Made by a program: the position numbers and the translations under genes. Below are positions 8,900-54,286 of a stretch of DNA of 64,000 nt, one piece after another. This DNA is from Clostridia bacterium. GTDB lineage: Bacteria; Bacillota; Clostridia; UMGS1883; UMGS1540. Position 1 is the stretch's first letter. Every line of letters starts with the position of its first letter. The DNA lies in contig JAZSIR010000021.1 of NCBI GenBank assembly GCA_045533905.1, forward strand, positions 43,283-107,282, given 5' to 3'. The notes beneath the pieces are model-generated. The model saw nothing but the letters and a program-made list of their open reading frames with translations. It was not told the DNA's origin and ran no database searches.

Positions 8900-9082
8900 C
8901 TCTTCTCCTCCTTGGTATGTACTACCGAAAGTATAGCACACCCGAGAGCCTCTTGGCAAGAGATTTATTTGTCTATTTTAACATTTTTGTAGCACAATAT
9001 CGCTAAAATGAATATATCCTATATTTATTTTGGAGTGATTGTATGTCTTTGAAAAGTGTATCCATACGCATCGAAAAAGAAA

Positions 9083-9099
9083 TGCTCGAAAGGCGAGCA
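9083..9099. terminator. short stem-loop with flanking T/A runs just downstream of the 9104 gene stop
   Basis: TGCTCG-AAAGG-CGAGCA, followed by T runs in both orientations. The stem sequence resembles the hairpin at 22341-22373. Confidence 0.4.
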
Positions 9100-9103
9100 C
9101 TTT

Positions 9104-9157
9104 TTATTCTGTTTTCTCCGCTTCCGAGAATATATTCTCAATAATTCCCAAATCCCA
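9104..9157 (-). repeat. R0: possible degenerate fifth copy of the spoIVB tail, now forming the last ~14 codons of the 9104-10423 gene
   Basis: Hand alignment of 9110-9144 against R1 11290-11324 gives 29/35 identical positions, in frame. The encoded ...GIIENIFSEAEKTE* compares with the tail ...[16 protein letters not shown]. Confidence 0.3.
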
Positions 9158-10423
9158 ACAAAGTCTTGATAAAACATATTTATCTCTTATATCCTTTGTG
9201 GCTTTAAAGGTTATTGGCAAAAGTTCTTCATCGAGTCCTATTTCCGCCATTGTTTTCGGAAGACTGGCCTTGTCAAAAAGATTTTCGAGTTCCGAAAACG
9301 CAGGCAGCTCCTCCTCGATAATTTGCAAAATTGCATCCCACTTGGAAAGCAGTGTCCCAAGTCTTTTTCTGTGACTTTCCAAATTATATTTCTGTTCTTT
9401 CTCTTCGAGCGCAATCATCGCTTCTGCACCTTTGCCGAGAAATTTTCTCAATGTTTCACTCCACGCCGCAAAATCAAACGCTTCCGCATACGCCAAAGCT
9501 TTTTGCCTTTCAGGCGTACAGTTTTTTATTTTCTCATAAAGTTTAACGGCTATCAAAGTACCAACCGCACATTGAATGCCGTGAAATTCTACCGCCTCTC
9601 CGAATTCTACGCCACGCATATCCCAAATATGAGAAAAATAATGCTCAACGCCGGAAGCAGGACGGGACATTCCCGCAAATTTCATAGCAGCTCCGCATAT
9701 AACCAATCCCTCAAATACTGCCTTGACCGCATTTTCATCCCGCTGCAAAAGCCCCTCGGCATTATCAACACACTTCTTTAAAGAACTTCTTACAAGCTCT
9801 GCTACCTTCTCGCAATAATATTCGCCGTTTATAAGATGCGAGATGCGCCATTCACAAATGGAAACATACTTTGCAAGCATATCACCAAGTCCCGAAAGCA
9901 TCATTTTTATGGGGGCATTACACAAAATGTCCGTATCGCCAAAAATCACATCGGCACATTTACTGTCGAGAGAGGTTTTGAGGCCATCCATTGTCATAGA
10001 GGATGTTGCAGAGGCATACCCGTCCATAGAGGGCGCTGTTGCCACTATGATATAGAGCCTTCCGGTAACGTTTGCAACAATTTTGCCAATATCGTTGATT
10101 ACACCCGAGCCGACTGCCAAAATTAAATCACAATCTTTTTTGTAGTGCATAATGGCACTGCCGGTACTTGTTTCGTCCGGATGTAAAATTTCATCCCTGT
10201 AAATGTGGGAAAGTATCTTCGTTCCGGAAGAGGCAAGAATTTTACAAACCGCATCGCCTGCCGCGGTGAATGTGTTTTCATCCGCAATCAAAAACACTTT
10301 TTCCGCATGCAGTTTTTGTAACACCTGCGGCAATTGATGGATTACCCCTTTGCCGACTATCACTTCCGATTCGAATGTGTGTGCTTTTCCGCATGTACAC
10401 TGTTTTGTATGTATCAAATTCAT
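9104..10423 (-). CDS. iron-dependent alcohol dehydrogenase family, sn-glycerol-1-phosphate dehydrogenase (AraM)-like
   Basis: 439 aa. Motifs LILAVGSGVINDIGK, APSMDGYAS and GVEHYFSH. Divergent from a DeoR regulator. Confidence 0.65.
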   Translation of the reverse strand: MNLIHTKQCTCGKAHTFESEVIVGKGVIHQLPQVLQKLHAEKVFLIADENTFTAAGDAVCKILASSGTKILSHIYRDEILHPDETSTGSAIMHYKKDCDLILAVGSGVINDIGKIVANVTGRLYIIVATAPSMDGYASATSSMTMDGLKTSLDSKCADVIFGDTDILCNAPIKMMLSGLGDMLAKYVSICEWRISHLINGEYYCEKVAELVRSSLKKCVDNAEGLLQRDENAVKAVFEGLVICGAAMKFAGMSRPASGVEHYFSHIWDMRGVEFGEAVEFHGIQCAVGTLIAVKLYEKIKNCTPERQKALAYAEAFDFAAWSETLRKFLGKGAEAMIALEEKEQKYNLESHRKRLGTLLSKWDAILQIIEEELPAFSELENLFDKASLPKTMAEIGLDEELLPITFKATKDIRDKYVLSRLCWDLGIIENIFSEAEKTE

Positions 10424-10534
10424 ATCATCACCAATTTAATTTTACCAAATATAGAGAGAATAATCAATACTTGAATATTATCTTGACAAAACAATCATCA
10501 ATTGATTATAATAGTGATTAAATAATAGAAACGG

Positions 10535-11242
10535 GTGATTATTTTGTCGATACATACTAGAGAAGAACTGTATATCAAACTCTTGGCGGAAAGAGAGCAT
10601 ACAGTTCGGGACCTGGCAAATAAACTTTTTGTGAGCGAACCTACGGTGCGGCGTGATATACTTGTTTTGGAAAAGAAGGATATTATCACACGCAAAAGAG
10701 GTAGGGTAAATCTCAAAATAAATTCTGCTGATAAACGCATTCCGTTATTTATTCGCGATATGGAAAACAACCCATCTAAAAGGCAAATAGCGCTTAAGGC
10801 TTTATCTTACATTAAAGATGGCGATACGATTATACTGGATGCCTCCACCACGGCCTACTGCCTGTTGCCGCATCTTGTAAATTTCAAAGAACTTTTCGTA
10901 ATAACGAACGGCGCAAAAACAGCTATTGACCTAGCGGCAATGGGGATCAAAACCATATGCACGGGCGGGGAGCTTACCGAAGAATCCTTTTCGTATGTCG
11001 GAACGGATGCCGAGAGCGTTTTAAGTCGCTATAATGCGGATGTAGCTTTTTTCTCCTGCAGAGGGATAACAGAGGATGGTTTTGTTACAGATAACTCTAT
11101 TTTAGAAAATTCTATGCGAAAAATTATGATAAGGAATGCAAGAAAGAGTTACCTTCTTTGTGATAAAAGTAAGCTTGGAAAAACCTATCTGAATACACTT
11201 TGCCACAAAAATGAACTGGATGGCGTTATAACGGATACGTAA
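10535..11242 (+). CDS. DeoR-family transcriptional regulator
   Basis: 235 aa with a GTG start. N-terminal HTH (TVRDLANKLFVSEPTVRRDILVLEKKDII) and a C-terminal DeoR sugar-binding fold (ILDASTTAY). Confidence 0.85.
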   Translation: MIILSIHTREELYIKLLAEREHTVRDLANKLFVSEPTVRRDILVLEKKDIITRKRGRVNLKINSADKRIPLFIRDMENNPSKRQIALKALSYIKDGDTIILDASTTAYCLLPHLVNFKELFVITNGAKTAIDLAAMGIKTICTGGELTEESFSYVGTDAESVLSRYNADVAFFSCRGITEDGFVTDNSILENSMRKIMIRNARKSYLLCDKSKLGKTYLNTLCHKNELDGVITDT

Positions 11243-11247
11243 TATAT

Positions 11248-11279
11248 AGGGCGTGCCTCACTATATTGAGGCACGCCCT
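11248..11279. terminator. bidirectional stem-loop between the DeoR gene stop and the stop codon of tail copy R1
   Basis: AGGGCGTGCCTCA-CTATAT-TGAGGCACGCCCT, followed by TTTT. Confidence 0.6.
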
Positions 11280-11280
11280 T

Positions 11281-11439
11281 TTACTTATTTGTTTTTCCCA
11301 CTTCCGAGAGCATATTTTCAATAAAAATCCCATACCCGCGCGTGGGGTCATTGACGAAAACGTGTGTTACAGCTCCAATGAGTTTGCCATTCTGAACGAT
11401 TGGGGAGCCGCTCATGACTGTTGTCAATGGGGGACAACA
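11281..11439 (-). repeat. R1: displaced copy of the spoIVB 3' end (11281-11415) plus the 7-7-7 inverted repeat (11419-11439)
   Basis: The minus strand reads [44 protein letters not shown] (stop at 11281-11283). The inverted repeat is TGTTGTC-AATGGGG-GACAACA. Confidence 0.85.
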
Positions 11440-11485
11440 AATTTTGAGGAATTTTCAAATCCAAGTTATGTTATATGTACTTTTA

Positions 11486-12694
11486 TCAATCAACTACACA
11501 ACCATTGGCATCCACCCATTTTTTACTGTCTACGTCAACACAAATCAACAACTTATTTAAATCAGTATCGAAAATCTGCTGTCCAAAAGACGGATAATAG
11601 CTGAGTCTTTCTGCAGTGCTGCAAACAGTTTTGTGGGTCATATTGATTGTGCGAAAGCCTTTACCTGAGCCATTTTCAAAAAGTTTAAAATTGGTTTCGT
11701 TTGTATGATTCCAGTCAGGCTGAAGTGTATATTCAATTCTTCCGCAAAAAGCTCCCGGGTGAATTTCACGCATAACATCCCCGAGTTTTCCTCCGGGGGT
11801 TTGGGTAGCCAAACGTTCGATGTTAAAGCTTATCATAGAAACTTCCTGACCGCCGATTAGAATATTACCATCACGGCCATGGTCACCACATTGATTAAAC
11901 AATGGTAAGTTCACATTTCTTTCGTCGCAACAGTTAATCATGGTGATAGGATGATTGTATCCACAATTAAAATCGTAGTTACCAAAAGTATAGCCATAAA
12001 CATTATGTGCTGCCGCACAATTTAACATAACAACATGTTCTCCGCCCACCTGAATTCCTTCATAGAAACCACCTGATGTAACATTGTCATAGCGAACAAT
12101 AAAGTTATTGCTACCATCGGTCATTGTAAGTCCGATGCAGCCTTCTTTTGCCATATCTGTTACACCCAAATATGTATTATCACGCTTTCCGCGAAGTCTG
12201 ACATTTTTCATCTGAACGCGGTCGCAACGACGCAAATCTATGCAGCGAACAGCTTTCTGATTATGCGCCAATGTCATAGTAATATTTTCGAGATTCAGAA
12301 CCGCTCCGCTATATAAACCTCTGTTTTTCCATTCGGTACGAAAAACAGAATATTCACCTTCTTCTATTTTAGAAAGTGCTTCCTCAGAAACATCAATCTG
12401 TACGCCCTCACGATTTTGTTCGAAGCTGAACGATTGTCCGATAATTGCAATTTCCTTATATAAAGCAGGTATCCTAATAGCTGCCATGGGTCCGCCATCT
12501 TCAAAATCATAAAAATCATCTACACAGTAAACACCGTTCAAAAGATAAACATTCTTTCCTTCTTCTGCGGCAGTCTTAATAGCTTTGTTTATCACAAGTT
12601 CATCATTTTTCCCTGAACAAACAAAATCAATGCCATCCTTTTCATTAAATTTTGAATTCGATGCAGCAACAGTTATAAAAGGTGAAAAACTCAT
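11486..12694 (-). CDS. right-handed parallel beta-helix (pectin-lyase fold) protein, probable glycan-degrading enzyme
   Basis: 402 aa. Repetitive beta-helix turns (NLENITM, RCDRVQMKNVRLRG, GLTMTDGSNNFIVRYDNV, VVMLNCAAAHN). No signal peptide. Confidence 0.5.
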   Translation of the reverse strand: MSFSPFITVAASNSKFNEKDGIDFVCSGKNDELVINKAIKTAAEEGKNVYLLNGVYCVDDFYDFEDGGPMAAIRIPALYKEIAIIGQSFSFEQNREGVQIDVSEEALSKIEEGEYSVFRTEWKNRGLYSGAVLNLENITMTLAHNQKAVRCIDLRRCDRVQMKNVRLRGKRDNTYLGVTDMAKEGCIGLTMTDGSNNFIVRYDNVTSGGFYEGIQVGGEHVVMLNCAAAHNVYGYTFGNYDFNCGYNHPITMINCCDERNVNLPLFNQCGDHGRDGNILIGGQEVSMISFNIERLATQTPGGKLGDVMREIHPGAFCGRIEYTLQPDWNHTNETNFKLFENGSGKGFRTINMTHKTVCSTAERLSYYPSFGQQIFDTDLNKLLICVDVDSKKWVDANGCVVD

Positions 12695-12733
12695 AAAATC
12701 TACTCCTTTTTAATTTTTATTCGGGTTAATACC

Positions 12734-13582
12734 TTAAATATTTAAAAATACTATGGATGCAAGTCCTGTTAAGAAACCTGCAAACTGTATTTTTGTCAGT
12801 TTTTCTTTATAAAATACTTTTGAAACAACATATGTAACAATAATTCCCCCTGCCGAAATCAGCGGAAACATAACGGATACAGCCATTGTTCCCGATAACA
12901 CCATAACAAGCAAATTAACAATACCATTCATAGCACCGGAAGCAACAGTAATAAACCGAGCATGATAAAAATTGCTTTTGAAATTATCTTTATTTGTTAC
13001 CAAAGTGGCTACTGCAAAAATCAAAAACACAATTGCGAGAGAAATTATCATAAATTCATTTTTGTATTCACCGTCGAATTTAATTTGTTGCATTTTCTGA
13101 ACGGTTGTACAAAGACCATTGCCGGCAAACGAAAGAAAAACAAATAAAAGCCATTTTGGTGTAATAGGACACTTGTCATTATTCTTGTTCACAAGGAAAA
13201 GCGAAATCGCAAGCAATCCAAGACCAATTATAAAATATATGCTTATTGGTTCCCTGAGAAAAGCAATTCCGTAAAAGGTTGGAATCATAAGTGAATATGA
13301 AATCATAAGTGACGAAAGTGACAAAGAACCATTTGCAATAGCAAGCATACCAGATAGTGAAGCGGTTGAAAATGATAAGGCAAAGGCTATCGAATATGGA
13401 ACAATCCCGGGATTCCAGCTAATATTCTTTGAAGTAACAAGAAAGAACATCATTGAAAAAAGCGCTGTAAGGGATAAAAAAAGATATGTACCATTTGTAC
13501 CTGTCTTTTCTGTATAGAATTTTTTAGCAATGCTCTGACCGGAAACGCCGGCTATTATAATTATCAAATATATAATGTTCAT
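12734..13582 (-). CDS. DMT/EamA-like 10-TM membrane transporter
   Basis: 282 aa. Entirely hydrophobic segments in a two-fold 5+5 pattern. Confidence 0.6.
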   Translation of the reverse strand: MNIIYLIIIIAGVSGQSIAKKFYTEKTGTNGTYLFLSLTALFSMMFFLVTSKNISWNPGIVPYSIAFALSFSTASLSGMLAIANGSLSLSSLMISYSLMIPTFYGIAFLREPISIYFIIGLGLLAISLFLVNKNNDKCPITPKWLLFVFLSFAGNGLCTTVQKMQQIKFDGEYKNEFMIISLAIVFLIFAVATLVTNKDNFKSNFYHARFITVASGAMNGIVNLLVMVLSGTMAVSVMFPLISAGGIIVTYVVSKVFYKEKLTKIQFAGFLTGLASIVFLNI

Positions 13583-13739
13583 ACGTTATGGCTCTATTTT
13601 CATCTGATACTACAAACAATCCCCATCAACTATATAAATTGTACCACTACATATTAATTTTTGTAAATAAATTATATTCTTTAAATATTGCAATATCTTC
13701 CCAACTATTATATAATATTGTTTAGAGGAGGCGTTAAAA

Positions 13740-14546
13740 ATGATTATAAAATACAATACAGAAAAGTTGCGACGTATTATAACCGATATAACCACCTTGA
13801 CTGGAATAAGCGTAGCCGTATTAGATACAGACTATAGCACCATAATAAGAGGACCACAGAGTAAAGAGTATTGCTCATTGCTGCAAACAATAGAAATTAA
13901 AAAAAAGCATTGCAAACAGTGTGATACAAGAATCTTAAACCGATGCCGTTCCTCTAAAAATTTGGAAAGTCACATATGCAGTGCGGGTCTTTATGATTCT
14001 GCAATGCCCATTATAAAAGACGATAACATCGTCGGATATGTCATAATGGGGCAGGTACGTTCTATGGACTCTCCTGCTCTGCCTAAATATTTACCTGATA
14101 CAGATCCTCAAACACTTAAAAAGTTAAATAAAATCTATGAACAAACTCCATTTATTTCAAAAAATCAATTGGAAGCACTGTATGATCTTCTGCCTCATAT
14201 TCTATTTGATAGTGCGATTGAGTTTGTGTACGATCCTGTTGCAATTGATATACTTAAGTTTATTGATGCAAATTTGCAAGCGGATTTAAGTATAAAACAG
14301 CTATGTGAAAGATTTTATATATCAAAAAACCGATTATATGAAGTTTTTCGGAACAATCTAGGATGCACCGTTACAGGATATATTAACGAACAACGCATCA
14401 AGCAAGCAAAAGAATTACTTAAACAATCAGACGATTCTATCTGTAATATTGCCGAAAAGGTAGGTATTTACAATTATACATATTTCTGTAAACTATTTAA
14501 AAAGCTCAGTGGAGTCACACCCACTGAATACAGAAAAAAGCCATAA
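13740..14546 (+). CDS. AraC-family regulator with an N-terminal PocR-type sensor domain
   Basis: 268 aa. PocR-like segment with a Cys-rich stretch (CSLLQ...HCKQCDTRILNRC...HICSAGLYDSAMPII...GYVIMGQV) and a C-terminal AraC HTH (GIYNYTYFCKLFKKLSGVTPTEYR). Confidence 0.8.
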   Translation: MIIKYNTEKLRRIITDITTLTGISVAVLDTDYSTIIRGPQSKEYCSLLQTIEIKKKHCKQCDTRILNRCRSSKNLESHICSAGLYDSAMPIIKDDNIVGYVIMGQVRSMDSPALPKYLPDTDPQTLKKLNKIYEQTPFISKNQLEALYDLLPHILFDSAIEFVYDPVAIDILKFIDANLQADLSIKQLCERFYISKNRLYEVFRNNLGCTVTGYINEQRIKQAKELLKQSDDSICNIAEKVGIYNYTYFCKLFKKLSGVTPTEYRKKP

Positions 14547-14561
14547 AAGGTTTACGTAAAA

Positions 14562-14590
14562 ATGCTCACTTATGAAATATAAGTGAGCAT
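14562..14590. terminator. stem-loop between the AraC stop and the R2 stop codon
   Basis: ATGCTCACTT-ATGAAATAT-AAGTGAGCAT, a 10-bp perfect stem. Confidence 0.5.
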
Positions 14591-14595
14591 TAATG

Positions 14596-14751
14596 TTATT
14601 TAATTTTCTCCGCTTCAGCCAGCATATTCTCTATAAATATCCCATATCCACGTGTCGGGTCATTTACAAAAACGTGTGTCACAGCTCCAATGAGTTTGCC
14701 ATTCTGAACGATTGGGGAGCCGCTCAAGACTGTTGTCAATAGGGGACAACA
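14596..14751 (-). repeat. R2: displaced copy of the spoIVB 3' end (14596-14724) plus the 7-7-7 inverted repeat (14731-14751)
   Basis: The minus strand reads [42 protein letters not shown]. The inverted repeat is TGTTGTC-AATAGGG-GACAACA. Confidence 0.85.
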
Positions 14752-14753
14752 AA

Positions 14754-16949
14754 TCAGATAAGTTTTTCTAACTCTGCCAGAATTCTATCGGCAATATTCT
14801 TCATCCCAATATCTCCGGGATGGTTTGCAACACCCTCGTGGCTAAATAATCCTATTGCTTTCATTTCATTAAGTTCACCCAGGTCTCCAAGTTCAATACA
14901 GGTCAAATTATTTTCTTTTGCATATTCTAAAATGATTTTATCACCGGGATGTTTCCAAAATCCTGTTGTTAATATAACTTTGGCCTTTAATGATTTGTTT
15001 AAATAGTCAAGCAGTTCTCCCAGTTCACGTTTGAATATTTCACAGTCAAATTCATTTTGCGGACAATTTTCAATAAAACGCATCACGATAATATCAGCAT
15101 CAAAGCTGCGGGCTTCTTCAAAGAGATAATGTTTGGTTGAGCCATTTTTATATTCCATTTCCCATTCCGCAACCTGACAGATGCAAAACGCCGCATCGGC
15201 TGATTTTTCCGAAACCGCAGACATCACACGATGAACATAGTCGTTTTCGGGACAGGAAGCCGCCATTCCGCATTCGTTGTACCAGCCTATCTGCGGGCGG
15301 AAGCCGTGGAGTGTCATCGAATTTCCCACAAACATCACTCGTTTACCTTTGCCATTCAAATTAAAAAATCGAATATGCCCACTATTATTGAGTTGATGAC
15401 CGGCACAAACCGTATTTTTCTGAAGTTGTTGGTATTCAGATGTTTTATAACAGATATTCTGCGTAAACTCTCCTGTAACGAATTGGTTCTCGTCAAAGTT
15501 TTTAAGAAGTTCTTGGTTCCAATACAAATTCTCAATCAATATATCTTTGGTTTGGTGGGTATCATCATAACCTTTGAAATATAGCGTTGGCTTTTGGCGA
15601 CCAAAGAGGTGAATGTTACTGAACAACATATTTCGATTGATGCCTCTGCGTGTGCCACCAGCAGAATACTCATGATGGAAACTGCTGACAATATGTATAA
15701 GATCAGGTGCATAATCTAAATTGGTGTTTTGATATGTTTCTGAATCTTTATTTTGAATAACACCTATTGGAATCACATCATCGTACTCTATATTTATATT
15801 TTTATACACCACATCATGCACATCGGCATAATCCACGTTGGAGCAGTCAAGTACATGACCGGTAACGTGTATGATGTTGCAGTTCTTAAAAACAATATTG
15901 CTTATTTCTTCCGCCCTTGTTTCTGCCCCGATTTCAAGACTTTTTCCCCAGTCGTTCCATATGGTGCAATTTTTTATAACTGTGTTCTTAAAAACATCGT
16001 AAGCTTTTCCTTTACGATACATTGCCTCTTTTACCGCTTTTTCAACATCATCTTCATGATAGCAATCAAAGCCTTTTACACAGATTGAATCATCAAAGGT
16101 TCGTAAAAAGCAATTATCTATAACAACATCTTCGCAATTGTGCATATCAATACCGTCTGAATTGTAACGCCAGCAACCAATAATTTTAACATTTGAAATA
16201 TGCATATTTTTGCAACCGATTGGTCTTATATTATAAACCAATGAATCGCGGATGGTGATGCCTTCAATTTTAATATTGTTACAATATTCAAGTTGAACTG
16301 TGTGCTCTCGTTTTGCATTATTGACTGCCGAAATATTATTTTCTGCATTATACTCAAAAAGTATTTTCTCAGTGTTTTTACTGTTGTCAAGAATACCTCT
16401 GCCCAAAATTTTTATGTTTTCGGAATCTATTGATTTTACACAGGCATAAACCACCGCACCTTCGTCAATAAACAATGTCTGATTGCTTTTTAATACAATT
16501 TCTCCGGCATAGTGTTCACCTTTGCCGAAATATATAACATTAGTATTGTTATAATCAATGTCATAGCAAGGTGTGGGATCAGAAAAAATATGAAGTGCAT
16601 TATTTCTGCCATACGGCTCAACGGTAAAATAAGCAGGCTTTTCAAGAGTAAATGTGATTTTTCCGTCTTTGATTTCCGGTGTTATACCCAATGACAACGG
16701 GCGTATAATAACTTCCTCAAAGGGATTTTGAGGAATTATTTCAAAAGACACCGATTCATCTGAAGAAAGTGAAAGGAAATTAACAAGTTCGGTTTGAGCT
16801 TTACTACGCTGATGCCCCGGCCAGCGACGGTTAAAAGGGAATGCAGACACACGGGCAGTATCAAGTGTTACCGGTTGTCCGTTCACTTTAACCTTATAAT
16901 TTTCTATGTGGTCTTTGGTTTGTGTTACAGGATAAATATTTATCGACAT
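14754..16949 (-). CDS. GH28-like beta-helix glycosidase fused to a C-terminal SGNH/GDSL-type esterase domain
   Basis: 731 aa. [32 protein letters not shown] resembles the GH28 NTDGID/DDC motifs. The C-terminus has [12 protein letters not shown] and [13 protein letters not shown] (SGNH blocks I and V). Confidence 0.65.
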
Positions 16950-17101
16950 ATCTTTGACTCCTTGTATTTTAGAATTACTATGACAATTATAATATTAAAG
17001 CAAGTAGAAAAATAGGTAATTTTTTAATATTAAAGGTATATATTTATTGACATTTTTGAGGATGCAATATATAATAGTCGTTATAAAAACCCCAAAGGAG
17101 T

Positions 17102-18004
17102 TTGATATGTGTGTATGTTTATAAAATCAAAATAAATTGTTTGCCAAAACTAATATGGGCTTGCGAAGTTACTGTTGAAAACTATGAATGGAGAAATCGC
17201 AATAGCAAAGATGTGTTGGAAATTTCGTATTCAAAATTTGACACAAAATCTGTTACCCTTAATAACAATAACTTTCTACTGAAAAACAACACTCTATCCT
17301 GCATAGTGGCTGATGAAAACCGTACAGCCTCCTGCAAATCGGGAAAGCCAATAACAATTGTATCAGTTGCTGTTAGTTTAAGTGATTTTAAATACCAACC
17401 ATGCGAACTTGTTGAAGCTGACTTGAGTGATGAAACAGTTCTTATATTGCCTTTTTATTTGGAAGAGTTGCCAATTAATTATGAACTTGAAATAATAAAG
17501 AAACTTCATGAAATCATTAAACTATCTTCCGCTGATTCGGAAAACAGAAAGATTGCTTTAGCATCTGCATTCTTTAACCTGATATGTGAGATTGATAAAA
17601 TAACACGAAATAATATCTGCAGCCAAAACAACAGCGTCAATTATTATGTAAAAAAAATTGATTACATTATCGAATCCAGATATAATGAGAAAATCACTCT
17701 CCAGTCAGTTGCATCAGAGTTGAATATATCACCGGTTTACCTGTCAACCATTTATAAAAGCATAACCGGTATAAATTTTTCGGAGCAACTTCTTATTGTG
17801 CGGATGAAACACGCAGAAAATTTATTGTTTGATCAAAATATTTCCACAACAAAGGTTGCAGAACTTTGCGGATTTTGCGATGAAAATTATTTCAGGAAAA
17901 GATTCAAACGTTTTTTTGGTATGAATGTAAGCGAGTGCAGAAAAATCAAAAACGGATTAACGCTCTACCACGAAAAACCTCAAAGAAAAAATGACAGCTG
18001 CTAA
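17102..18004 (+). CDS. AraC-family transcriptional regulator
   Basis: 300 aa; the start may be GTG 17111 after RBS AAAGGAG. C-terminal HTH: ISPVYLSTIYKSITGINFSEQL...CGFCDENYFRKRFKRFFGMNVSECR. Confidence 0.8.
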   Translation: MICVYVYKIKINCLPKLIWACEVTVENYEWRNRNSKDVLEISYSKFDTKSVTLNNNNFLLKNNTLSCIVADENRTASCKSGKPITIVSVAVSLSDFKYQPCELVEADLSDETVLILPFYLEELPINYELEIIKKLHEIIKLSSADSENRKIALASAFFNLICEIDKITRNNICSQNNSVNYYVKKIDYIIESRYNEKITLQSVASELNISPVYLSTIYKSITGINFSEQLLIVRMKHAENLLFDQNISTTKVAELCGFCDENYFRKRFKRFFGMNVSECRKIKNGLTLYHEKPQRKNDSC

Positions 18005-18020
18005 ATTTAGCGGCTGTCAT
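17991..18020. terminator. stem-loop overlapping the AraC stop, immediately before the R3 stop codon
   Basis: ATGACAGCTG-CTAAATTTAG-CGGCTGTCAT with one mismatch, followed by TTTT. Confidence 0.45.
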
Positions 18021-18026
18021 TTTAAA

Positions 18027-18203
18027 TTAAAAATTTTCTGAATTCTTTTCTTCAATGCTTCGTGCAGCCGCTAACATATTTTCAATAAATATCCCATAAC
18101 CTCTTGTTGGATCATTTACAAATACGTGTGTCACAGCTCCCACAATTCGGCCATTTTGCAGGATGGGTGAACCAGACACGAGTGTTGTCAATATGGGACA
18201 ACA
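18027..18203 (-). repeat. R3: displaced copy of the spoIVB 3' end (18027-18176) plus the 7-7-7 inverted repeat (18183-18203)
   Basis: The minus strand reads [49 protein letters not shown]. The inverted repeat is TGTTGTC-AATATGG-GACAACA. Confidence 0.8.
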
Positions 18204-18217
18204 ATTTTTTATATTTT

Positions 18218-21431: not shown

Positions 21432-21934
21432 ATATTTTTGCATGGACAAGTGGTATTCTCGGAATAACTGCAAATGTGATAATCTATCAGCAAGAAAGCG
21501 GTAAACGAGTTTTGATATACAAGCTTATTTCTGATTTTATATGGGTTTTTCACTATTATACACTTAACGCATATTCGGGGATGGCGGTAGCAATGGTAGG
21601 TATTTTAAGAGAAATTGTTTTCTTAACCCAACAAAAAACGGAAATATCAAAAATCTGGCTGATAATTTTCATGGGCGTTGCGATGGTATGTGCATCCTTC
21701 ACATGGAAAGGTGTAATAAGCTTTCTGCCCGCCACAGCTTCTGTTTTGTCGGTTATAAGCTTTTGGAAAGCAAATCCGGTATTTACAAGAATAATTGCCT
21801 ATCCTATTTCTATTTGTATGTTAACATACGATATTGTATATAAATCATATACAGGAATTACTAACGAAGTATTAACTTTTATTTCATCTACAATAGGTAT
21901 AATACGAATGCGTAAAAAGGTAAATTTAATATAA
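21419..21934 (+). CDS. YgjV-family small inner-membrane protein
   Basis: 171 aa with ~5 TM segments. Overlaps the preceding gene by 13 nt. Similar in architecture to the backbone gene at 43494-44024. Confidence 0.5.
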   Translation: MVGMNIFAWTSGILGITANVIIYQQESGKRVLIYKLISDFIWVFHYYTLNAYSGMAVAMVGILREIVFLTQQKTEISKIWLIIFMGVAMVCASFTWKGVISFLPATASVLSVISFWKANPVFTRIIAYPISICMLTYDIVYKSYTGITNEVLTFISSTIGIIRMRKKVNLI

Positions 21935-22039
21935 AGGGGTAATAACAATGAGCGAATTAAGAATGGGTGTAATTAATTAGGAAAGAACTTTAATACGCTA
22001 TTGATGCCGGGATTATGAAAAAAATGGCCTAACAGATTT

Positions 22040-22276
22040 TCCTGAAGATACCGGTATCAGGGTTATACAAAGACAGAGTGTATCCCCGGTCCAACAAATC
22101 AGGAGTTAAAAGATGGTGCTGATATGTTTTGCAGATGGATGGAAGAAAATATAAGCTATATGAAAAGGATGCATATCCTGACATTTGCATGGAATGAATT
22201 CGAAGAAGGAGCATGGCTGTGCCCCACATGTATTGATGACTCAAGTATAGACGATAGCCGTATTAAAGCATTTTAA
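22040..22276 (+). pseudogene. frame-disrupted C-terminal remnant of a GH99-like/WbsX-family gene
   Basis: Hand translation gives ...DGADMFCRWMEENISYMKRMHILTFAWNEFEEGAWLCPTCIDDSSIDDSRIKAF*. The AWNEFEEGAW segment resembles the WNEW.EG motif. Upstream frames are broken by stops. Confidence 0.3.
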
Positions 22277-22340
22277 AATATTGTAAAAATGTGGAAGTCA
22301 AAGCTTGGGTAAGCTTTTATATAAATATTAATATGTGATA

Positions 22341-22373
22341 AATATGCTCGCCTTTAATAAAGACGAGCATATT
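22341..22373. terminator. stem-loop immediately before the R4 stop codon
   Basis: AATATGCTCG-(13 nt)-CGAGCATATT, a 10-bp stem. Confidence 0.4.
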
Positions 22374-22374
22374 A

Positions 22375-22530
22375 CTATTTAATCTTCTCAGCTTCGGAGA
22401 GCATATTCTCAATAAATATCCCATACCCACGGGTTGGGTCATTTATAAAAACATGAGTTACTGCACCAACTAACTTGCCATTTTGCAGGATGGGTGAACC
22501 CGACACGACTGTTGTCAATAGGGGACAACA
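22375..22530 (-). repeat. R4: displaced copy of the spoIVB 3' end (22375-22503) plus the 7-7-7 inverted repeat (22510-22530)
   Basis: The minus strand reads [42 protein letters not shown] (TAG stop). The inverted repeat is TGTTGTC-AATAGGG-GACAACA, and the activase gene ends inside it. Confidence 0.85.
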
Positions 22531-23396
22531 TTTTTCACACCGATGGCTTTGATTTTTTCTGCAACCAATGCAATTTCATCCTTTGTAGGTAATGGAACCA
22601 TTGACAAAGGATAACCAAGCTCCATACACTCATATTTTCTTTCCGCATAGTTGTGATAAGGCAGTATCCGCAGTACTTTTACGGATTTTAAATCTTTAAC
22701 AAAGGCTGCAATTTTCTCCGCTTCACCGTCATTCATTGTTGGTATGTATGGATATCTTATTTCTATAGGGATACGCAGAGAATCGATATATTTTATGTTT
22801 TCAAGTATCTGTTTATTTGATACTCCTGTGCATTTTGTGTGAATATCCTCATTGATAGCCTTTATATCAAAGAGAAATGTGTCGGTATAGGGGATGATTT
22901 TATCAAAAGCCACTCTGTTTACAAATCCGCTGGTGTCCACGGCAATATTTATATCGTGTTCTTTCAGAAGCTTTGCAATTTCTACGCAAAAGTCCGCCTG
23001 CATAAGCGGTTCACCACCGGAAAAGGTTACACCTCCGCCACTGCCTTTCATAAATATTTCGTCTTTAAGAACTTCTTTTGCTATTTCCTCTGCAGAAGAT
23101 GTTTTACCTGAAATTTCGAATGCATTATTGGGACAGATATCTTCACATTTCCCGCATAACGTACATTTTTCTTTGATAAACATATGCTTTTCGTCTTTGA
23201 TTACATTTGCCTCACATATTTTGGTGCATCGCATACAATTACCGCAAGCAGTTTTGTCAAAAAGTATTTCTTTTTCAAAGGAAAATGATTCCGGATTGTG
23301 ACACCATTTACATCGGAGGGGACACCCCTTGAAAAATACAGTTGTTCTTATGCCATCGCCGTCGTGAATTTCAAAAGGCTTTATAGCAAAAATCAT
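22515..23396 (-). CDS. glycyl-radical enzyme activating protein (radical SAM)
   Basis: 293 aa. [12 protein letters not shown] (CxxxCxxC) plus two ferredoxin-type clusters, [11 protein letters not shown] and [16 protein letters not shown] motif present. Confidence 0.9.
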
Positions 23397-25594
23397 TAGC
23401 CCGACACCTCACATTGCTTTATAAACATATCTTGTTTTACTTTGCTGAGCTTTACAAAATATTCATTCCAGCCACATACCCTTACCTGAAGAGTTGAATA
23501 TTTTTCAGGATATTTCTGAGCTTCAATCAAAGTCTCTCTTTTTACTATATTTCCCTGCATTGCAAATCCGCCATTATCGAGGAAGATTTTGATAAGAGAA
23601 ATAAAGTCCTCAAGACCTTTTTCGCCTTCAACGGCAGAAGGATGTAATATAAAATCAAACGGTACTCCGTCTACAAAAGATGCTGAGTCAATTTTCAATA
23701 CAGATTGCATATATGCGGTAATACCGCCCCTGTCCATTCCGTCGGATGCACACAGATTTTTGGAAATCGGTTTTTTTGCATTTCTTCCGTCAGATGTAGC
23801 AGATGTTTTTTCTCCGTGTTTTATACAATGATATACCGAATCAAGTCCAAGACGCACCTTGCCGCCTCTTTCGAGATTCTTGTTGCAATAACGATTGGCA
23901 AGATTTTCTAAAATGTCGGTCATTATCTTATCGGGAATGGTCATATTATTTCCATACTTTTCTTTGTCGTTGATAATTCTCTTTTGCAAATCTTCAAACC
24001 CTTTCCAGTCTGACAAAAGAGCTCTTCTCATATCGTCAAGTGAAATTTCCTTAAGGTCAAATACATATTTTTTTATTGCAACAAGAGAATCCACCGTAGT
24101 TGCAAGACCGTGATGCTTTAAAGATAAATTATTATACTTCAAAGGATATTCGTGCACATCCATACCTTTTTCAATACATTCTGAAAAACTACTCGAATAT
24201 ATAGGCGAAGGATTAATAAGTGTACTGTATTCTCCTTGCTTTTCAATGAAATCCAACGCAAAGTCGGTGCAGTAATTCAGTTGTTTTAAGTAGATGTCAA
24301 AAAACTCCTCAAAACTTTTAATATCTGTTTTACTTTCATATCCAACCTGAGAATCTGTCATAATATCTCTACCGCCATTTATAGCAAATTCAACACATTT
24401 TACCGTATTAAAACGAAGTGCCGAAATTTCACCTTCTTCCAATCCCATAATAATAGGCTCATAACAACCAAGTATAACATAGTTCTGTGAATCTTCTTTA
24501 GGTATGCCGATTTTTTCGTATGCATCAAATACCGCTTCGTCATTAATAAGACATATACTGCTGTGTCCGCCTCTTATCATTAAAGCGGCTTTTCTTATGA
24601 TTTTTTCGTCTATGTTTTTATGACATCTTATGTGAATTTTGGGGTCATAAATGCCCATTTCATCATATACGTTTAAAATAAGATGACTGAGCTCATTAGT
24701 GTAATCATTTCCGTCCTTGTCAGAACCGCACATGGTAAATGGTTGTTCAGCAAATCTTTTTGCCGCTGTGAAATGAATGAAATAATACCTGAAGAGCTCT
24801 TTAATTTCTTCTTCTGTTTTTCCTGTTGCCTTGTCTTTTTCAAAATATGGAAAATACATTCTGTCAATGGGCCCGAGTGTTCTGGCTTTTTCGACTCCGA
24901 TTTCCTCAAAATAAAGATAGAGTATGGAAAATTGCATTACCTCATACAAATTTTCGGGTGGCTTTGTCATAAGATTTTTTATGCACCTTGAAAACTCCGG
25001 CACATTGAATTTAAGTGAATATGTGTATATTCTGTCAAGAAGTCTTAAAATTGCATTATAGCATATTAATACAGAGTCAAGAAAAACAATTTGTTTATCC
25101 AGATAGTTTCCGCTTGCTATAAGCTTTTCTTTTGAATTTTTAACGTTTTTAATAATTCCTGCAAAACCATTTTCCAATAGATATGACCAGTTGGGAACAG
25201 TATGAATAAAATCAACCATCATCCAATCAAGACCAACATCTGCAAATTTTTTAAATTTTTCATATTCTTCAGGGAGCTTTTTTTTGCGAATTTTTTCTGT
25301 TTGCGAATAAAAAGCTTTACAAAAAACAGTATCTGTAGCAAAATAAGAATAGTCAATTCCAAGGTTTAGTTTTACCGAAAATGGTGTATGCTCATTGATT
25401 TCCAGTTGCAGATTATCCAAAAGATACGAATATGCATTTGCGCACACAATTTCCCTGGGTAATTCTGTTTCGTAATTTTGAAATTCCTGTAGCTTTGATA
25501 ATAAGATTTTGGGTGAAAGTCCTGTGGATTCATCCCAGATTGCTTGTTCAAATCCATTTTGTATGAAGTCTCTGTTTTCTTTGAATTTTTGCAT
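23396..25594 (-). CDS. glycyl-radical enzyme (PFL-fold), unknown substrate
   Basis: 732 aa. C-terminal glycyl-radical fingerprint TLQVRVCGWNEYFVKL and a mid-protein LGCYEPII Cys loop. Overlaps the activase start by 1 nt. Confidence 0.85.
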   Translation of the reverse strand: MQKFKENRDFIQNGFEQAIWDESTGLSPKILLSKLQEFQNYETELPREIVCANAYSYLLDNLQLEINEHTPFSVKLNLGIDYSYFATDTVFCKAFYSQTEKIRKKKLPEEYEKFKKFADVGLDWMMVDFIHTVPNWSYLLENGFAGIIKNVKNSKEKLIASGNYLDKQIVFLDSVLICYNAILRLLDRIYTYSLKFNVPEFSRCIKNLMTKPPENLYEVMQFSILYLYFEEIGVEKARTLGPIDRMYFPYFEKDKATGKTEEEIKELFRYYFIHFTAAKRFAEQPFTMCGSDKDGNDYTNELSHLILNVYDEMGIYDPKIHIRCHKNIDEKIIRKAALMIRGGHSSICLINDEAVFDAYEKIGIPKEDSQNYVILGCYEPIIMGLEEGEISALRFNTVKCVEFAINGGRDIMTDSQVGYESKTDIKSFEEFFDIYLKQLNYCTDFALDFIEKQGEYSTLINPSPIYSSSFSECIEKGMDVHEYPLKYNNLSLKHHGLATTVDSLVAIKKYVFDLKEISLDDMRRALLSDWKGFEDLQKRIINDKEKYGNNMTIPDKIMTDILENLANRYCNKNLERGGKVRLGLDSVYHCIKHGEKTSATSDGRNAKKPISKNLCASDGMDRGGITAYMQSVLKIDSASFVDGVPFDFILHPSAVEGEKGLEDFISLIKIFLDNGGFAMQGNIVKRETLIEAQKYPEKYSTLQVRVCGWNEYFVKLSKVKQDMFIKQCEVSG

Positions 25595-25728
25595 AATTTA
25601 ATCACCTCTTGCAATGTATTATACCTTTGCTTTAACGCGAAGTAAATGCATTATAGAGTCAAATAGATGTAAAAATCCGTCATTGACATTTATGGATATT
25701 TATTGTATAGTTTAATTGGTGATGATTT

Positions 25729-26499
25729 ATGAATGATATATGTATCAAAGAAATAGTCAATGTTTACCACAGGAATAAAATCATGTGGAGAAGAAATTCT
25801 TTTGCTCCACGTGCTTTCGATGCTGTTGTTTTATTTACACACGGAGAAATAGAATATAAATTTTCTGACAAAACCTTTGTTGCAAAAAAAGGTGATTTTC
25901 TATTGTTGCCGTGCGATATTGCATATTCAGGAAAAATGCATACTGATAATGCTTCTTATTATGTAGTAGACTTTAGGTGTTTATGTGCTGACGAATTTAA
26001 AAATTATATAGCACCGGGTGTTTTTAAAACAGAAAATTTTGGTTTGTTTGTTTCTAAATTTGAAAATGCAGTGAAATCATGGGATGTTCACACACTCAAT
26101 GCAAATCTCAAAATCAAATCATTACTTTATTCTGTGCTTGCAGAATTCCAAAAACAGAAAGAAATGAATTTTAAAACAACAAGTATTTATGATATTATAG
26201 AATACATATCTGATCATATTGGTGATTCAAATCTTAATGTAACAGAGTTATGCAGACTGTTTCATATATCGGATTCTCAACTCAGAAGAAATATTTTAAA
26301 AAATACCGGCTTATCTCCAAACGAATATATATTTACAATAAGAGTGAACAAAGCAAAAAACGAACTCTCGTACACCGATAAACCGATTCAAATGATTTCT
26401 TACGAATGCGGCTTTTCATCACCATATTATTTCTCAAGATGTTTTTCCAAAAGTACAGGAATGTCCCCCTCAAAATACAGAACACTCACCCGTACATGA
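25729..26499 (+). CDS. AraC-family regulator (cupin plus HTH)
   Basis: 256 aa. C-terminal HTH CGFSSPYYFSRCFSKSTGMSPSKYR. Divergent from the GRE operon. Confidence 0.85.
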   Translation: MNDICIKEIVNVYHRNKIMWRRNSFAPRAFDAVVLFTHGEIEYKFSDKTFVAKKGDFLLLPCDIAYSGKMHTDNASYYVVDFRCLCADEFKNYIAPGVFKTENFGLFVSKFENAVKSWDVHTLNANLKIKSLLYSVLAEFQKQKEMNFKTTSIYDIIEYISDHIGDSNLNVTELCRLFHISDSQLRRNILKNTGLSPNEYIFTIRVNKAKNELSYTDKPIQMISYECGFSSPYYFSRCFSKSTGMSPSKYRTLTRT

Positions 26500-26511
26500 G
26501 CAGGTGAGTGT
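26482..26511. terminator. stem-loop overlapping the AraC stop, 12 nt from the spoIVB stop codon (serves both convergent genes)
   Basis: ACACTCACC-(12 nt)-GGTGAGTGT, followed by TTT. Confidence 0.5.
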
Positions 26512-26522
26512 TTTCGATTCTG

Positions 26523-27722
26523 TTATTTAATTTTCTCCACTTCCGCTAGCATGTTTTCAATAAATATCCCATAACCTCTTGTTGGATCATTCACAAAAAC
26601 GTGAGTTATTGCACCAACGAGTTTGCCGTTTTGGATTATAGGCGAACCCGACATACCTTGCACGATGCCGCCGGTGAGCCGCAAAAGGCGCTCGTCCGTG
26701 ATTTTCAGGACCATACTTTTTCCGTTTCCGCTGCGGCGCGAAAGTTTTTCGATTTCGACGGTGTACGCCTTTTTCTCGCCGTCAATACTGCTGAAGATGA
26801 CGGCATCGCCTTTTTGTACCTGTGTGCTCGCAGCAATGGGGACGGAGATGCCGTCCTTTCCCATTTCGCTTTTGCCGAAGAGGCCGACGGCCTCATTTTT
26901 CAAAATGGTGCCCACATCCGCTCCGAACACGCCGCGCACCGCGCCGGGAACGCCGTTCTCCCCTTTATCGATCTGTACGATTTCGCACGCGGTGATGCTG
27001 CCGTGCGCAGGCGGCACGGCTTCTTCGGTATCGGGGTCGAGAATCGCGTGGCCGAGGGCCGCGTAGGTGCCGTCCTCGGGAATGTAGAAGGTGACGGTGC
27101 CGATACCGGCTGTGCTCTCGCGCACCCAAAGGCCGAGCTTGTAGGCGCCGCCATCGGCGTACCAGACGGGTGTGATTTCCGCATCCCACTGCTTTTCCCT
27201 GCGGCAGACCGTGAGCGTCATCGCTTTGCCGCCGCTTTTTACAACGGCCTCCTCGAGCATATCGCTCCCCGAAAGGCGTGCGCCGTTCACGGCCACGATT
27301 CTGTCGCCCGCACGGATGCCGGCTTCCTTCCCCGGGGCGCGGCCTGTTTGGGGAATTTCGGAAAGGCCGATGACGAGAACACCGTCCATATACAGCTTAA
27401 TGCCGACTGCCTCGCCCCCTAACGTGACGTTTCTGCCCTCCACCACGCTTACGGCGGCCGTCCGCCGCCAAAGGCCGAAGGCGGAAAGGTCCATCGTATA
27501 CGCGCCGGCCTTTTCGGGCGTTACCAGAAAGCGGTTGTCTTCTTTTGTAAAATGAAAATCGCCTTCGGAAGCGATGGGCGCAACGAAGGCGGGCAGGGCG
27601 TGCTTTTCCCCGCGGAGCATCACAAACTCCGAAGGCAGAAGCGTGCCGTAAAAATAACAAAAAATCAAGGAAACAGAAAGCGCGCCGACAGCGAGACGGC
27701 GCGCGTATTTTTGCCTCTTCAT
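26523..27722 (-). CDS. spoIVB: SpoIVB sporulation signalling serine peptidase (S55), PDZ domain plus peptidase domain
   Basis: 399 aa. N-terminal TM segment, PDZ (GIRAGDRIVAVNG), and active-site region [42 protein letters not shown]. Confidence 0.9.
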   Translation of the reverse strand: MKRQKYARRLAVGALSVSLIFCYFYGTLLPSEFVMLRGEKHALPAFVAPIASEGDFHFTKEDNRFLVTPEKAGAYTMDLSAFGLWRRTAAVSVVEGRNVTLGGEAVGIKLYMDGVLVIGLSEIPQTGRAPGKEAGIRAGDRIVAVNGARLSGSDMLEEAVVKSGGKAMTLTVCRREKQWDAEITPVWYADGGAYKLGLWVRESTAGIGTVTFYIPEDGTYAALGHAILDPDTEEAVPPAHGSITACEIVQIDKGENGVPGAVRGVFGADVGTILKNEAVGLFGKSEMGKDGISVPIAASTQVQKGDAVIFSSIDGEKKAYTVEIEKLSRRSGNGKSMVLKITDERLLRLTGGIVQGMSGSPIIQNGKLVGAITHVFVNDPTRGYGIFIENMLAEVEKIK

Positions 27723-27780
27723 TTTCTCACCTCGGCTTTAGTTTTGCCGAATGTGGCGAGGATATAAGAATCAATTTTTG

Positions 27781-29145
27781 TTAATTTAAATGCGCGTATT
27801 TTGCATATACTTTTTTACGGACAATGCGGTAACAAATGAAATGTGCCGTGCCTGTTAAAATCCAGCTGATGGGATAGGAAATGAAAAGCCACCCGATCGT
27901 GTGATGGTGCTGAAACACCGTAAGCACCCAAAGTACGCGGAATGCACACGCGCCAAGAAGCGAAACGCACATCGGCAAAATGGAATAGCCAAGGCCGCGC
28001 ACGGTGCCCATTGTCGTTTCCATAAGGCCCACAAGAAAATACGGCATAGCAATATACAAAAACCGCTGACAGCCGTAACGGATAACCTCGGGTTCCGTAG
28101 AATAGATAGAGAGTAGCGCTTCGTCAAAAAGCACCACGATACCGCCGAGGGCAGCGCCGATGACGGCAGCTGTGAGCGCGGCTACGCGAAGACCCTTATC
28201 AATACGGTCAAACTGCCGCGCGCCGAGGTTTTGCCCCGTTAAGGTCAGCATCGTCTGGTAAATGGCGTTCATGGCCACGTATACAAAGCCTTCGATATTG
28301 GCCGCAGCGGCGTTGCCGGCCACAATGGCCGTGGAACCAAAGGAATTGATAGAAGACTGGATGAGCATATTGGAAATTGAGAAGAGCGAACTCTGGATAC
28401 CTGCCGGAAGCCCGATTTTGACCATCGTAATTGCTTCTTCCTTGCAAAGGCGCACGCGGCTCGGCACAAGGCGCACTTCGCTTTCCTCATGGATAAGACA
28501 AAGAAAGACAAGCGCGGCGGAAATGAACTGTGCCGCGGCGGTAGCAATGCCGACACCGACAGCGCCGAGATGAAAGCCAATAACGAGGATAAGGTTTAAA
28601 ACGACATTGACAATACCTGCAATGATAAGGATATATAAGGGACGCATCGTGTCGCCCTTGGCGCGGAGAATGGCTGTGCCGAAGTTATAGATAATGCTTG
28701 CAGGGATACCAACCGCATAGGCGCGAAGATAAGAAACGGCGCTATTCAGAATCGCATCGGGCGTATCCAGAAGACTTAAAAGACCTTCCGCCAAAAAGAA
28801 CATAGCCACGCCGGCGAGTAAACCCGATACAATGGAGATGAAGACAGCAGTATGTACCGCGCGTTCAATCCCGGCGCGGTCACGCGCGCCGATATATCTT
28901 GCGACGAGGACGTTTGCACCAATCGAAAGACCAATGCAAAGGTTTACGATGAGGTTTATCGCAGCGCCATTGGAGCCTACGGCCGCAAGCTCCGTCTCCC
29001 CCGCAAAACGGCCAACGACAATGACGTCTGCCGCATTAAAGAGAAGCTGCAGGATGCTGCTTATAATAATTGGTACAGAAAACAGGAGAATATTCTTTAA
29101 AAACGGGCCTTCGAGAAGGTTTCCGTTTGGTATTCTCGCTCGCAT
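27781..29145 (-). CDS. MATE-family efflux transporter
   Basis: Start moved to ATG 29143-29145 (MRARIPNGNLLEGPFLKNILLFSVPIII...). 12 TM segments; motif FNAADVIVVGRF. Confidence 0.85.
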   Translation of the reverse strand: MRARIPNGNLLEGPFLKNILLFSVPIIISSILQLLFNAADVIVVGRFAGETELAAVGSNGAAINLIVNLCIGLSIGANVLVARYIGARDRAGIERAVHTAVFISIVSGLLAGVAMFFLAEGLLSLLDTPDAILNSAVSYLRAYAVGIPASIIYNFGTAILRAKGDTMRPLYILIIAGIVNVVLNLILVIGFHLGAVGVGIATAAAQFISAALVFLCLIHEESEVRLVPSRVRLCKEEAITMVKIGLPAGIQSSLFSISNMLIQSSINSFGSTAIVAGNAAAANIEGFVYVAMNAIYQTMLTLTGQNLGARQFDRIDKGLRVAALTAAVIGAALGGIVVLFDEALLSIYSTEPEVIRYGCQRFLYIAMPYFLVGLMETTMGTVRGLGYSILPMCVSLLGACAFRVLWVLTVFQHHHTIGWLFISYPISWILTGTAHFICYRIVRKKVYAKYAHLN

Positions 29146-29270
29146 ACGCTCGCCCCCAAAGGAAGATTTTCTAAAAAATACTGTACCACAGCACCCCTTT
29201 TTTGTCAATAGGCACTTTGGAAAAAATATTTTGACTTTTCCTACAATATATAGTATAATGTTATAATAGG

Positions 29271-54280: not shown

Positions 54281-54286
54281 AAAATT

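Follow-up and report, generated by a model that had tools for sequence, protein, structure and literature searches.

Cargo cassettes stacked at the 3′ end of spoIVB in a gut Clostridia genome are bounded by putative half-sites of a serine-recombinase element

An island of five cassettes behind spoIVB

We analysed a stretch of 64,000 nucleotides, hereafter the window, from a Clostridia bacterium (GenBank assembly GCA_045533905.1, contig JAZSIR010000021.1, positions 43,283 to 107,282). In it, the sporulation gene spoIVB is followed by an array of cassettes that lack a recombinase gene and open with further copies of the end of spoIVB. The array forms a low-GC island of 17.5 kb (35.3% G+C, flanks 50.4 and 50.7%) between the native spoIVB body (26652..27722, minus strand; PF05580, 4e-76; 59.5% G+C) and a native GH43 gene on the far side (7964..8959, minus strand; PF04616, 2e-29; ~49-53% G+C). 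The other native flank is a MATE efflux pump gene (27781..29208, minus strand; PF01554 MatE, 3.7e-50; ~50% G+C), which likewise adjoins spoIVB in the genomes G014 and G020. A direct-repeat search and alignment revealed that the last 129-150 nt of spoIVB recur four more times, in addition to a 55-nt remnant, and that every copy spans the gene from the catalytic Ser codon to the stop. Considering its low G+C relative to the flanks and its division into modules by att-like sites, this is a genuine island, and the missing recombinase matters.

In gene sense, which is the minus strand, the order is spoIVB body, tail t5, cassette E, arm and t4, D, arm and t3, C, arm and t2, B, arm and t1, A and GH43. 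The cassettes share one plan: a replacement spoIVB tail, a terminator hairpin, their own regulator with catabolic or transport genes, an A-rich stretch and a 25-nt arm, described below. The regulator is of the AraC type in four cassettes and of the DeoR type in one.

The last codon of the native body is the Met codon before the catalytic Ser, and the dinucleotide TG within it (26652-26653, minus strand) marks the point directly after which the homology with the displaced tails begins. The live tail t5 (26523..26651, minus strand), 42 codons from the catalytic Ser to the stop, is foreign: it has 38% G+C, and the G+C content at third codon positions (GC3) falls from 73.5% in the body to 32.6% in the tail within ~12 nt of the TG. 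Cassette E follows (cargo and right end 22506..26522, arm 22506-22530), with an AraC gene (25729-26499, plus strand), a short glycyl-radical enzyme of 732 aa (23396-25594, minus strand) and its radical-SAM activase (22515-23396, minus strand). Beyond TG at 22504-22505 lies the displaced tail t4, still an open 42-codon frame (22375..22503). Cassette D (18179..22374, arm 18179-18203) encodes a YgjV membrane protein (21419-21934, plus strand), a GH106-like glycosidase assigned by its predicted fold (19128-21431, plus strand) and an AraC regulator (18218-19027, minus strand), and ends at TG 18177-18178 and the 49-codon tail t3 (18027..18176). Cassette C (14727..18026, arm 14727-14751) carries an AraC gene (17102-18004, plus strand) and a GH28-like enzyme of 731 aa (14754-16949, minus strand), followed by TG at 14725-14726 and t2 (14596..14724). 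Cassette B (11415..14595, arm 11415-11439) holds genes for a PocR-AraC regulator (13740-14546, plus strand), an EamA transporter (12734-13582, minus strand) and a beta-helix enzyme recognised by its predicted fold (11486-12694, minus strand), with TG at 11413-11414 and t1 (11281..11412) behind it. The oldest cassette, A (9104..11280), is truncated and has no arm; it encodes a DeoR regulator (10535-11242, plus strand) and an Fe-ADH_2 enzyme (9104-10423, minus strand), whose last codons (9105-9159) are the tail remnant t0. All tails and cassettes are given on the minus strand; the remaining genes were named by Pfam and the remnant was placed by alignment.

Three further details of the window were recorded. 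The last 11 codons and stop of the GH28-like gene (14754-14790, minus strand) resemble an in-frame spoIVB tail end (22/33 nt, hand count) and stand 2 nt before the arm, and they may be what is left of a cassette that was deleted almost entirely. The hairpin after many tails has a conserved stem, ATGCTC-R-C ... G-Y-GAGCAT, followed by a T run (window 22341-22373, 14562-14590 and 9070-9100), and the same stem occurs at L019, L020, L091 and L118. Such conservation beyond the need of a terminator points to either common descent of the tail and hairpin as a unit or a second functional site. Outside the island, positions 54001-55000 form a 1-kb dip to 43% G+C amid ~50% sequence.

The cassette boundaries resemble half of a serine-recombinase attachment site

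The inverted repeat TGTTGTC-N7-GACAACA precedes t1 to t4, giving four matches in the window against 0.1 expected by chance, and within this genome it occurs in the array only. A pattern scan that took one genome per species returned at least 117 loci; among those listed, 43 had the motif followed by an in-frame spoIVB tail, and all 43 belonged to gut Clostridia bins.

Two of these 43 loci, in G022 and G023, point to the nature of the repeat. Here, three consecutive large serine recombinase (LSR) genes, with the domain make-up Resolvase, Recombinase and Zn_ribbon_recom, stop 27-30 nt before the motif, and the arm abuts the spoIVB tail. The body of the gene is found on a separate contig, where it breaks off directly behind the Met codon preceding the catalytic Ser and gives way to element DNA that opens with a mirror-image arm ending in GGGACAACA. 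The attP site rebuilt from attL and attR of these two genomes measures 52 bp (25 nt, TG, 25 nt), and its dyad symmetry is 18/27 and 16/27 in register compared to 8-13 when shifted. The rebuilt sites have the properties by which LSR attP sites are recognised, namely a length of ~50 bp and an imperfect dyad around a non-palindromic central dinucleotide. An LSR gene stands beside the site in G022, G023 and a third genome, G197, but beside none in the window or anywhere in its genome.

Judged from these site sequences, the 7-7-7 repeat represents the two motifs, outer and inner, of a single LSR half-site, and this half-site is the 25-nt P arm of attP. Each cassette boundary would accordingly read as an attR-type site (P arm, TG, older tail), of which the window has four, and the live gene as an attB-type junction (native body, TG, foreign newest tail), of which it has one. 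In a set of 48 sites gathered with an exact 17-base P-arm pattern as the query, TG directly followed the arm in 47. Among seven displaced tails found independently of that pattern, five had kept the arm at 21-24 of 27 positions. The tail homology begins exactly at the crossover point of the element, and the P arm is absent from the live body/tail junction, lying wholly on the element side of the crossover.

These features bear on the analogies with integron cassettes and Xer-dependent elements that had been drawn from the sequence alone. A Xer-type housekeeping recombinase or an integron-type integrase could in principle use the repeat as a dif- or attC-like site: the 7-7-7 geometry is that of a tyrosine-recombinase core, and three Xer-sized tyrosine recombinases (282-323 aa) are encoded in the genome. 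This is extremely improbable, given that the repeat is missing at the live junction and confined to one side of the crossover, that it matches one LSR half-site whose mirror half lies at the other end of the triple-LSR element, and that no integrase gene adjoins the array. Like an integron, the array has ordered recombinase-less cassettes at a single site, with the newest expected beside the anchor. However, it has no intI (no PF00589 match on the contig) and no attC, its boundaries consist of the arm and a spoIVB tail, its cassettes bring their own regulators and promoters, and its site chemistry is that of a serine recombinase. Integrative mobile elements exploiting Xer (IMEX) and dif modules differ in using a 28-bp dif-like 11-6-11 site at each boundary, with the crossover inside its spacer, whereas the 7-7-7 repeat lies outside the crossover. 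As the repeat is half of a serine-recombinase attP and neither attC nor dif, the integron and Xer/dif analogies fail; the third analogy, with mobilisable islands that borrow the integrase of another element, fits best.

A triple-LSR element splits spoIVB in other genomes

The sequence-only reading had proposed checking spoIVB in other strains for a full-length parent element, and such elements were found in G022, G023 and G197, the last with an LSR 61% identical and a variant arm adjoining the spoIVB tail. The left end of the element encodes ParA, ParB, RepA_N and LPD15; the right end encodes a RecD2-like helicase, YqaJ, DUF3854 and a sigma-factor fragment. From this gene content, the full element looks like a large integrative one and is probably conjugative, though the latter label is unproven: no type IV secretion genes were found in the parts of it that were read. 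In the full-element carriers G022 (L139, L141) and G023 (L138, L140), SpoIVB is cut just before the catalytic Ser and, as predicted from the sequence, should be inactive.

In the order of G022, one of 151 genomes has a spoIVB-targeting element, and that one is G022 itself; in a sample of 301 genomes from the family of G023, two elements target spoIVB (G023 and G197). A metagenome scan with the LSR alignment matched only the query's own contig, a viral collection held neither the mirror P′ arm nor an arm followed by a spoIVB tail, and the end of the G197 element contig gave no match.

Neither the array nor the genome encodes the matching recombinase

The sequence-only reading had listed four AraC and one DeoR regulators, enzymes, two membrane proteins and spoIVB as the credible genes of the array, a tally with which Pfam agreed, and had seen no recombinase, transposase, excisionase or relaxase in or beside it. 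This held up in every search. Pfam named 14 of the 16 credible genes between 7964 and 29208, and neither Pfam nor predicted folds placed any of the four enzyme types among these genes, from GH43 to the MATE pump. The two open reading frames (ORFs) flagged as possible hiding places of a diverged recombinase both proved to encode carbohydrate enzymes. The product of 11486-12694, folded from an alignment of homologues, has a right-handed beta-helix of pectin-lyase type (pLDDT 79), with Foldseek matches to the AlgE4 epimerase, pectin methylesterase and tailspikes and with PF12708 in its homologues. That of 19128-21431 is a TIM-barrel glycoside hydrolase (pLDDT 87) nearest to GH106 rhamnosidases (BT_0986, Foldseek E 9e-19). 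A hidden recombinase in either is ruled out by these folds. The 10 small or antisense ORFs of the array contained no Pfam family of note, and tblastn with the nine recombinase loci of the genome and six serine recombinases of the elements found no recombinase remnant in the 64-kb window (best E 0.03).

The search of the genome for integrases, also proposed earlier, was run on all six frames of the whole genome and revealed five PF00589 (tyrosine recombinase) and four PF00239 (serine recombinase) genes, none of them on the window's contig (C15). None of the nine is an orthologue of the element LSRs, the best serine recombinase being 28-32% identical. There is no mirror P′ arm in the window or its genome, and no attL. 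The closest relative of the element recombinases in this genome is at C8 36765-38288 (581 aa), ~450 nt from the contig end. Lacking both the cognate enzyme and a P′ arm, the array is best seen as stranded in this genome and is probably fixed, apart from homologous recombination or gene conversion between tails of ~130 nt. For this genome, the alternative that the sequence-only reading had offered, an accretion now fixed and resolvable only by homologous recombination between the tails, is the better description, and the mosaic tails described below show that such recombination does occur.

The cassettes are shared between distantly related hosts

The same cassettes were found in at least 40 other genomes, and at least 20 loci have the layout of body, tail, 1.2-4.3 kb of cargo, arm and tail. 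Identical cargo (98-100%) stands beside spoIVB bodies that are only 33-44% identical. Cassette B, for instance, is the first cassette at L118 with 94.6% identity overall and 98-100% in the cargo, while the adjoining spoIVB body is 39% identical; L034/L077, L091/G009 and others share cassettes in a like manner. Between L118 and the window, the near-identity stops exactly at the TG on one side and inside the tail on the other, where only the last 40 nt of tail and the terminator share the identity of the cargo. This indicates that the tails are chimeric. The L118 copy of cassette B also has a 26-nt duplication (4990-5040), comprising the A-rich stretch and the first P-arm bases, just left of the arm.

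Cassette E occurs at ~99% identity in contigs from four gut-metagenome runs of four studies, including one of 4.07 kb. One run has almost no cover of the spoIVB body and another joins the cassette to a different tail; uncovered parts of the contigs count as no evidence of absence. With 22508-26573 as the query, 17 runs from 12 studies held at least half of the query words (20 runs and 14 studies in all). The runs with cassette E are animal gut or faecal metagenomes, and the glycyl-radical enzyme cassette looks like a successful, recently spread metabolic module.

This recurrence also bears on whether the array is real. The assembly is a metagenome bin of 23 contigs, and many contigs of relatives end at tails, as expected of repeats that break assemblies, so that a misassembly through repeated tails deserves consideration. 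It is very unlikely, since the tails differ by 12-35% and are hence not collapsible repeats, the same layout recurs in at least 20 independent assemblies, and independent runs contain cassette E ending in tails.

Of 46 displaced tails, 45 are open; the tails differ mostly at synonymous sites (proportion of synonymous differences, pS, 0.79; of nonsynonymous differences, pN, 0.117; pN/pS 0.15). They hence diverged while translated, and the displaced copies are too young to have decayed. We had also considered the high amino-acid identity of tails across hosts as proof of tail mobility; this was dropped as native tails are highly conserved too, which leaves the GC3 contrast and the terminator to carry that argument. 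The catalytic Ser codon of the tails at the 48 attR-type sites is either TCN or AGC. A single substitution cannot turn one class into the other while retaining Ser, so two or more old lineages of tails are in circulation. In the family genomes G013, G015, G006, G005 and G011, the live tail has a GC3 far below that of the body, and the assembly contains no arm and tail. Their contigs often break off shortly beyond the tail, and cassette arrays are therefore probably under-counted in bins.

How the cassettes may have moved

We lean towards the view that the five cargo cassettes are non-autonomous units, stacked in the attachment site of a spoIVB-targeting LSR element family and moved by its LSR. 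The junction of body, TG and tail is what LSR excision (attL x attR) produces. According to the proposed route, the full three-LSR element would integrate at the single attB, the junction of body and first tail. On excision, attL could pair with the nearest attR, giving a clean exit, or with an attR farther away, in which case the intervening cassettes would leave with the element. In the next host, integration followed by exit via the nearest attR would deposit the cassettes beside the body. Such a route places the newest cassette nearest the body and pushes older tails outward, as in the array. Both the involvement of an LSR and the route are what we infer; action in trans would follow from the identity of the sites, without co-occurrence of enzyme and array. 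The earlier proposal of an enzyme acting in trans is partly supported: a parent element with the same P arm (variant in G197) does lie at spoIVB in other genomes, but this genome has no such element, no cognate recombinase and no P′ arm.

Several observations weigh against this view. The comparison of recombinases with array-bearing genomes, suggested by the sequence-only reading, gave no co-occurrence: an orthologue of the terminal LSR of the element is lacking from this genome, from all 22 family genomes (best 274 bits, compared to 550-690 for true orthologues) and from all 37 other cassette-bearing genomes. The full-element carriers G022 and G023 have a single tail and no cassette, and neither a composite of element and cassette nor an attL or attP inside an array was seen. 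The cassettes begin with a B′-type tail and not with a P′ arm, and hence cannot be explained as simple decay products of the element. Were a cassette to form a circle, this would carry attR, and an LSR alone does not integrate attR into attB. The tails are of mosaic make-up, and the limits of several cargo blocks fall at the edges of the arm-tail unit and not at the TG, which shows that homologous recombination and gene conversion are active; homologous recombination could explain much of the cassette spread. Lastly, in G197 a second and intact spoIVB is found in addition to the contig with LSR, arm and tail, on a contig of its own, which may be a binning artefact. Mobile elements are often missing from metagenome bins, which make up most of the genomes, and an absence therefore says little in either direction.

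LSRs specific to the family were rejected as a common mobiliser: they are mutually 27-47% identical, with G010/G020 (96%) and G012/G021 (85%) as close exceptions, and no arm adjoins them.

The mosaic tails lead to a different account, in which one ancient serine-recombinase event made the arm-tail unit and all later spread and stacking proceeded by RecA-type recombination alone, with the P arm as a relic. A circle looped out between two tails would re-enter any spoIVB tail by a single crossover, and such a Campbell-type crossover yields the same layout. It would also account for the confinement of the shared identity to the last 40 nt of tail and the terminator at L118, for cargo blocks whose limits often coincide with the outer edges of the arm-tail unit, and for the lack of the cognate recombinase in every cassette-bearing genome searched. 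Nevertheless, we consider it doubtful. In this high-GC host, the composition switches within ~12 nt of the TG; this is the outermost part of the homology, where a homologous crossover would be least expected, and the near-identity of L118 and the window stops exactly at the TG. Moreover, the arm is 78-100% conserved while the synonymous sites of the adjoining tails are saturated, and hosts with bodies 33-44% identical would offer only ~130 nt at ~75-80% identity.

It is also conceivable that the cassettes descend from small autonomous elements with a tail and their own recombinase, either another LSR lineage or a tyrosine integrase with the tail as its core, and are now decayed remnants. Repeats of a 3′ gene end bracketing islands are the usual signature of tyrosine integrases, including integrase-less remnants (PMC5704250), and the two spoIVB loci of G197 would fit. 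This is unlikely, however, as a recombinase inside a tail-bearing cassette was seen in none of the 43 arm and tail loci among the matches listed, the tail homology starts exactly at the LSR crossover, and the tail-less triple-LSR element has this very arm. In addition, unrelated hosts contain the same small cassettes, down to identical end points, which is not expected from independent decay.

Extending the preferred reading of LSR-moved cassettes, we tentatively envisage an integron-like capture platform on LSR half-sites in gut Clostridia. A rare triple-LSR element would shuttle independent tail-bearing cassettes between distant hosts by its choice of attR, and the cassettes would act as repair patches that keep spoIVB whole where insertion of the element would break it.

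Relation to known mobile elements

The closest parallel is the staphylococcal cassette chromosome (SCC) and its composite islands at rlmH/orfX, including the ccr-less pseudo-SCC and the arginine catabolic mobile element (ACME), where serine recombinases insert elements at the 3′ end of a conserved gene, which stays intact. Recombinase-less SCC elements stack in tandem with repeated bounding sites and are thought to be moved by the recombinases of other elements. The spoIVB array has a similar layout, its recombinase-less units being bounded by repeated sites where a conserved gene ends; that they depend on an LSR is suggested by the identity of the sites, and no co-occurrence was found. In contrast to the SCC repeat of ~15-18 bp, however, the spoIVB repeat is a replacement gene end of 42-49 codons with a terminator; the full element has three LSR genes and breaks its target gene; the sites keep a strict asymmetry of P and B half-sites; and the hosts are uncultured gut Clostridia.

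Elements that split sporulation genes are known as well: skin in sigK, SPbeta in spsM and gin in gerE lie in mother-cell genes and excise there, and spoIVB of Bacillus subtilis is expressed in the forespore. The full LSR-bearing element likewise splits spoIVB in G022 and G023, whereas the window holds only cassettes that keep the gene whole.

Cis-mobilisable elements (CIMEs) have no integration or transfer genes and keep attL and attR of their parent (Guedon et al. 2017, PMC5704250). When they stand in tandem at a gene 3′ end, as with ICESt1/ICESt3 at fda, an adjoining functional element can co-excise them (cis-mobilisation; PMC5704250). The spoIVB cassettes resemble them in lacking such genes and in their tandem position at a gene 3′ end. 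Yet they keep only attR-type sites and have a B′-type tail without a P′ arm at their left end, which places them outside the CIME definition, and in the known CIME cases the integrases are of the tyrosine type and all four att sites share one identical core.

The triple-LSR element itself recalls streptococcal integrative and conjugative elements (ICEs) with triplet serine-integrase modules, in which three co-oriented LSR genes lie at one extremity beside the integration site (Ambroset et al. 2016, PMC4701971). These insert within a gene and disrupt it, generating direct repeats of 2-8 bp (PMC4701971), and the spoIVB element shares both the three LSR genes at one end and the disruption of its target. 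Their published targets, however, are mutT, traG and hsdM and not spoIVB, and no arrays of recombinase-less cassettes are reported there (PMC4701971).

Implications

Our literature search found no paper pairing spoIVB with a serine recombinase. What is new here is the spoIVB target, the portable 42-codon gene end with its terminator, the combination of a gene-breaking element with gene-preserving cassettes, and the strict half-site pattern. If serine recombinases do service these recombinase-less cassettes, this would be a second independent case after SCC, and the strict P/B logic of the sites would predict the permitted rearrangements. For flagging horizontally acquired DNA when metagenome bins are annotated, the 25-nt arm with a spoIVB tail behind it is a simple marker.

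For the genome studied here, the findings mean that the island is foreign, that its gene order records the order of arrival, and that nothing on board is able to move the array. If the cassettes are moved by a recombinase that is not their own, spoIVB would be a widespread gene-collecting site in spore-forming gut bacteria, absent from the literature searched, through which ready-regulated carbohydrate, glycyl-radical and transport modules would be traded between families.

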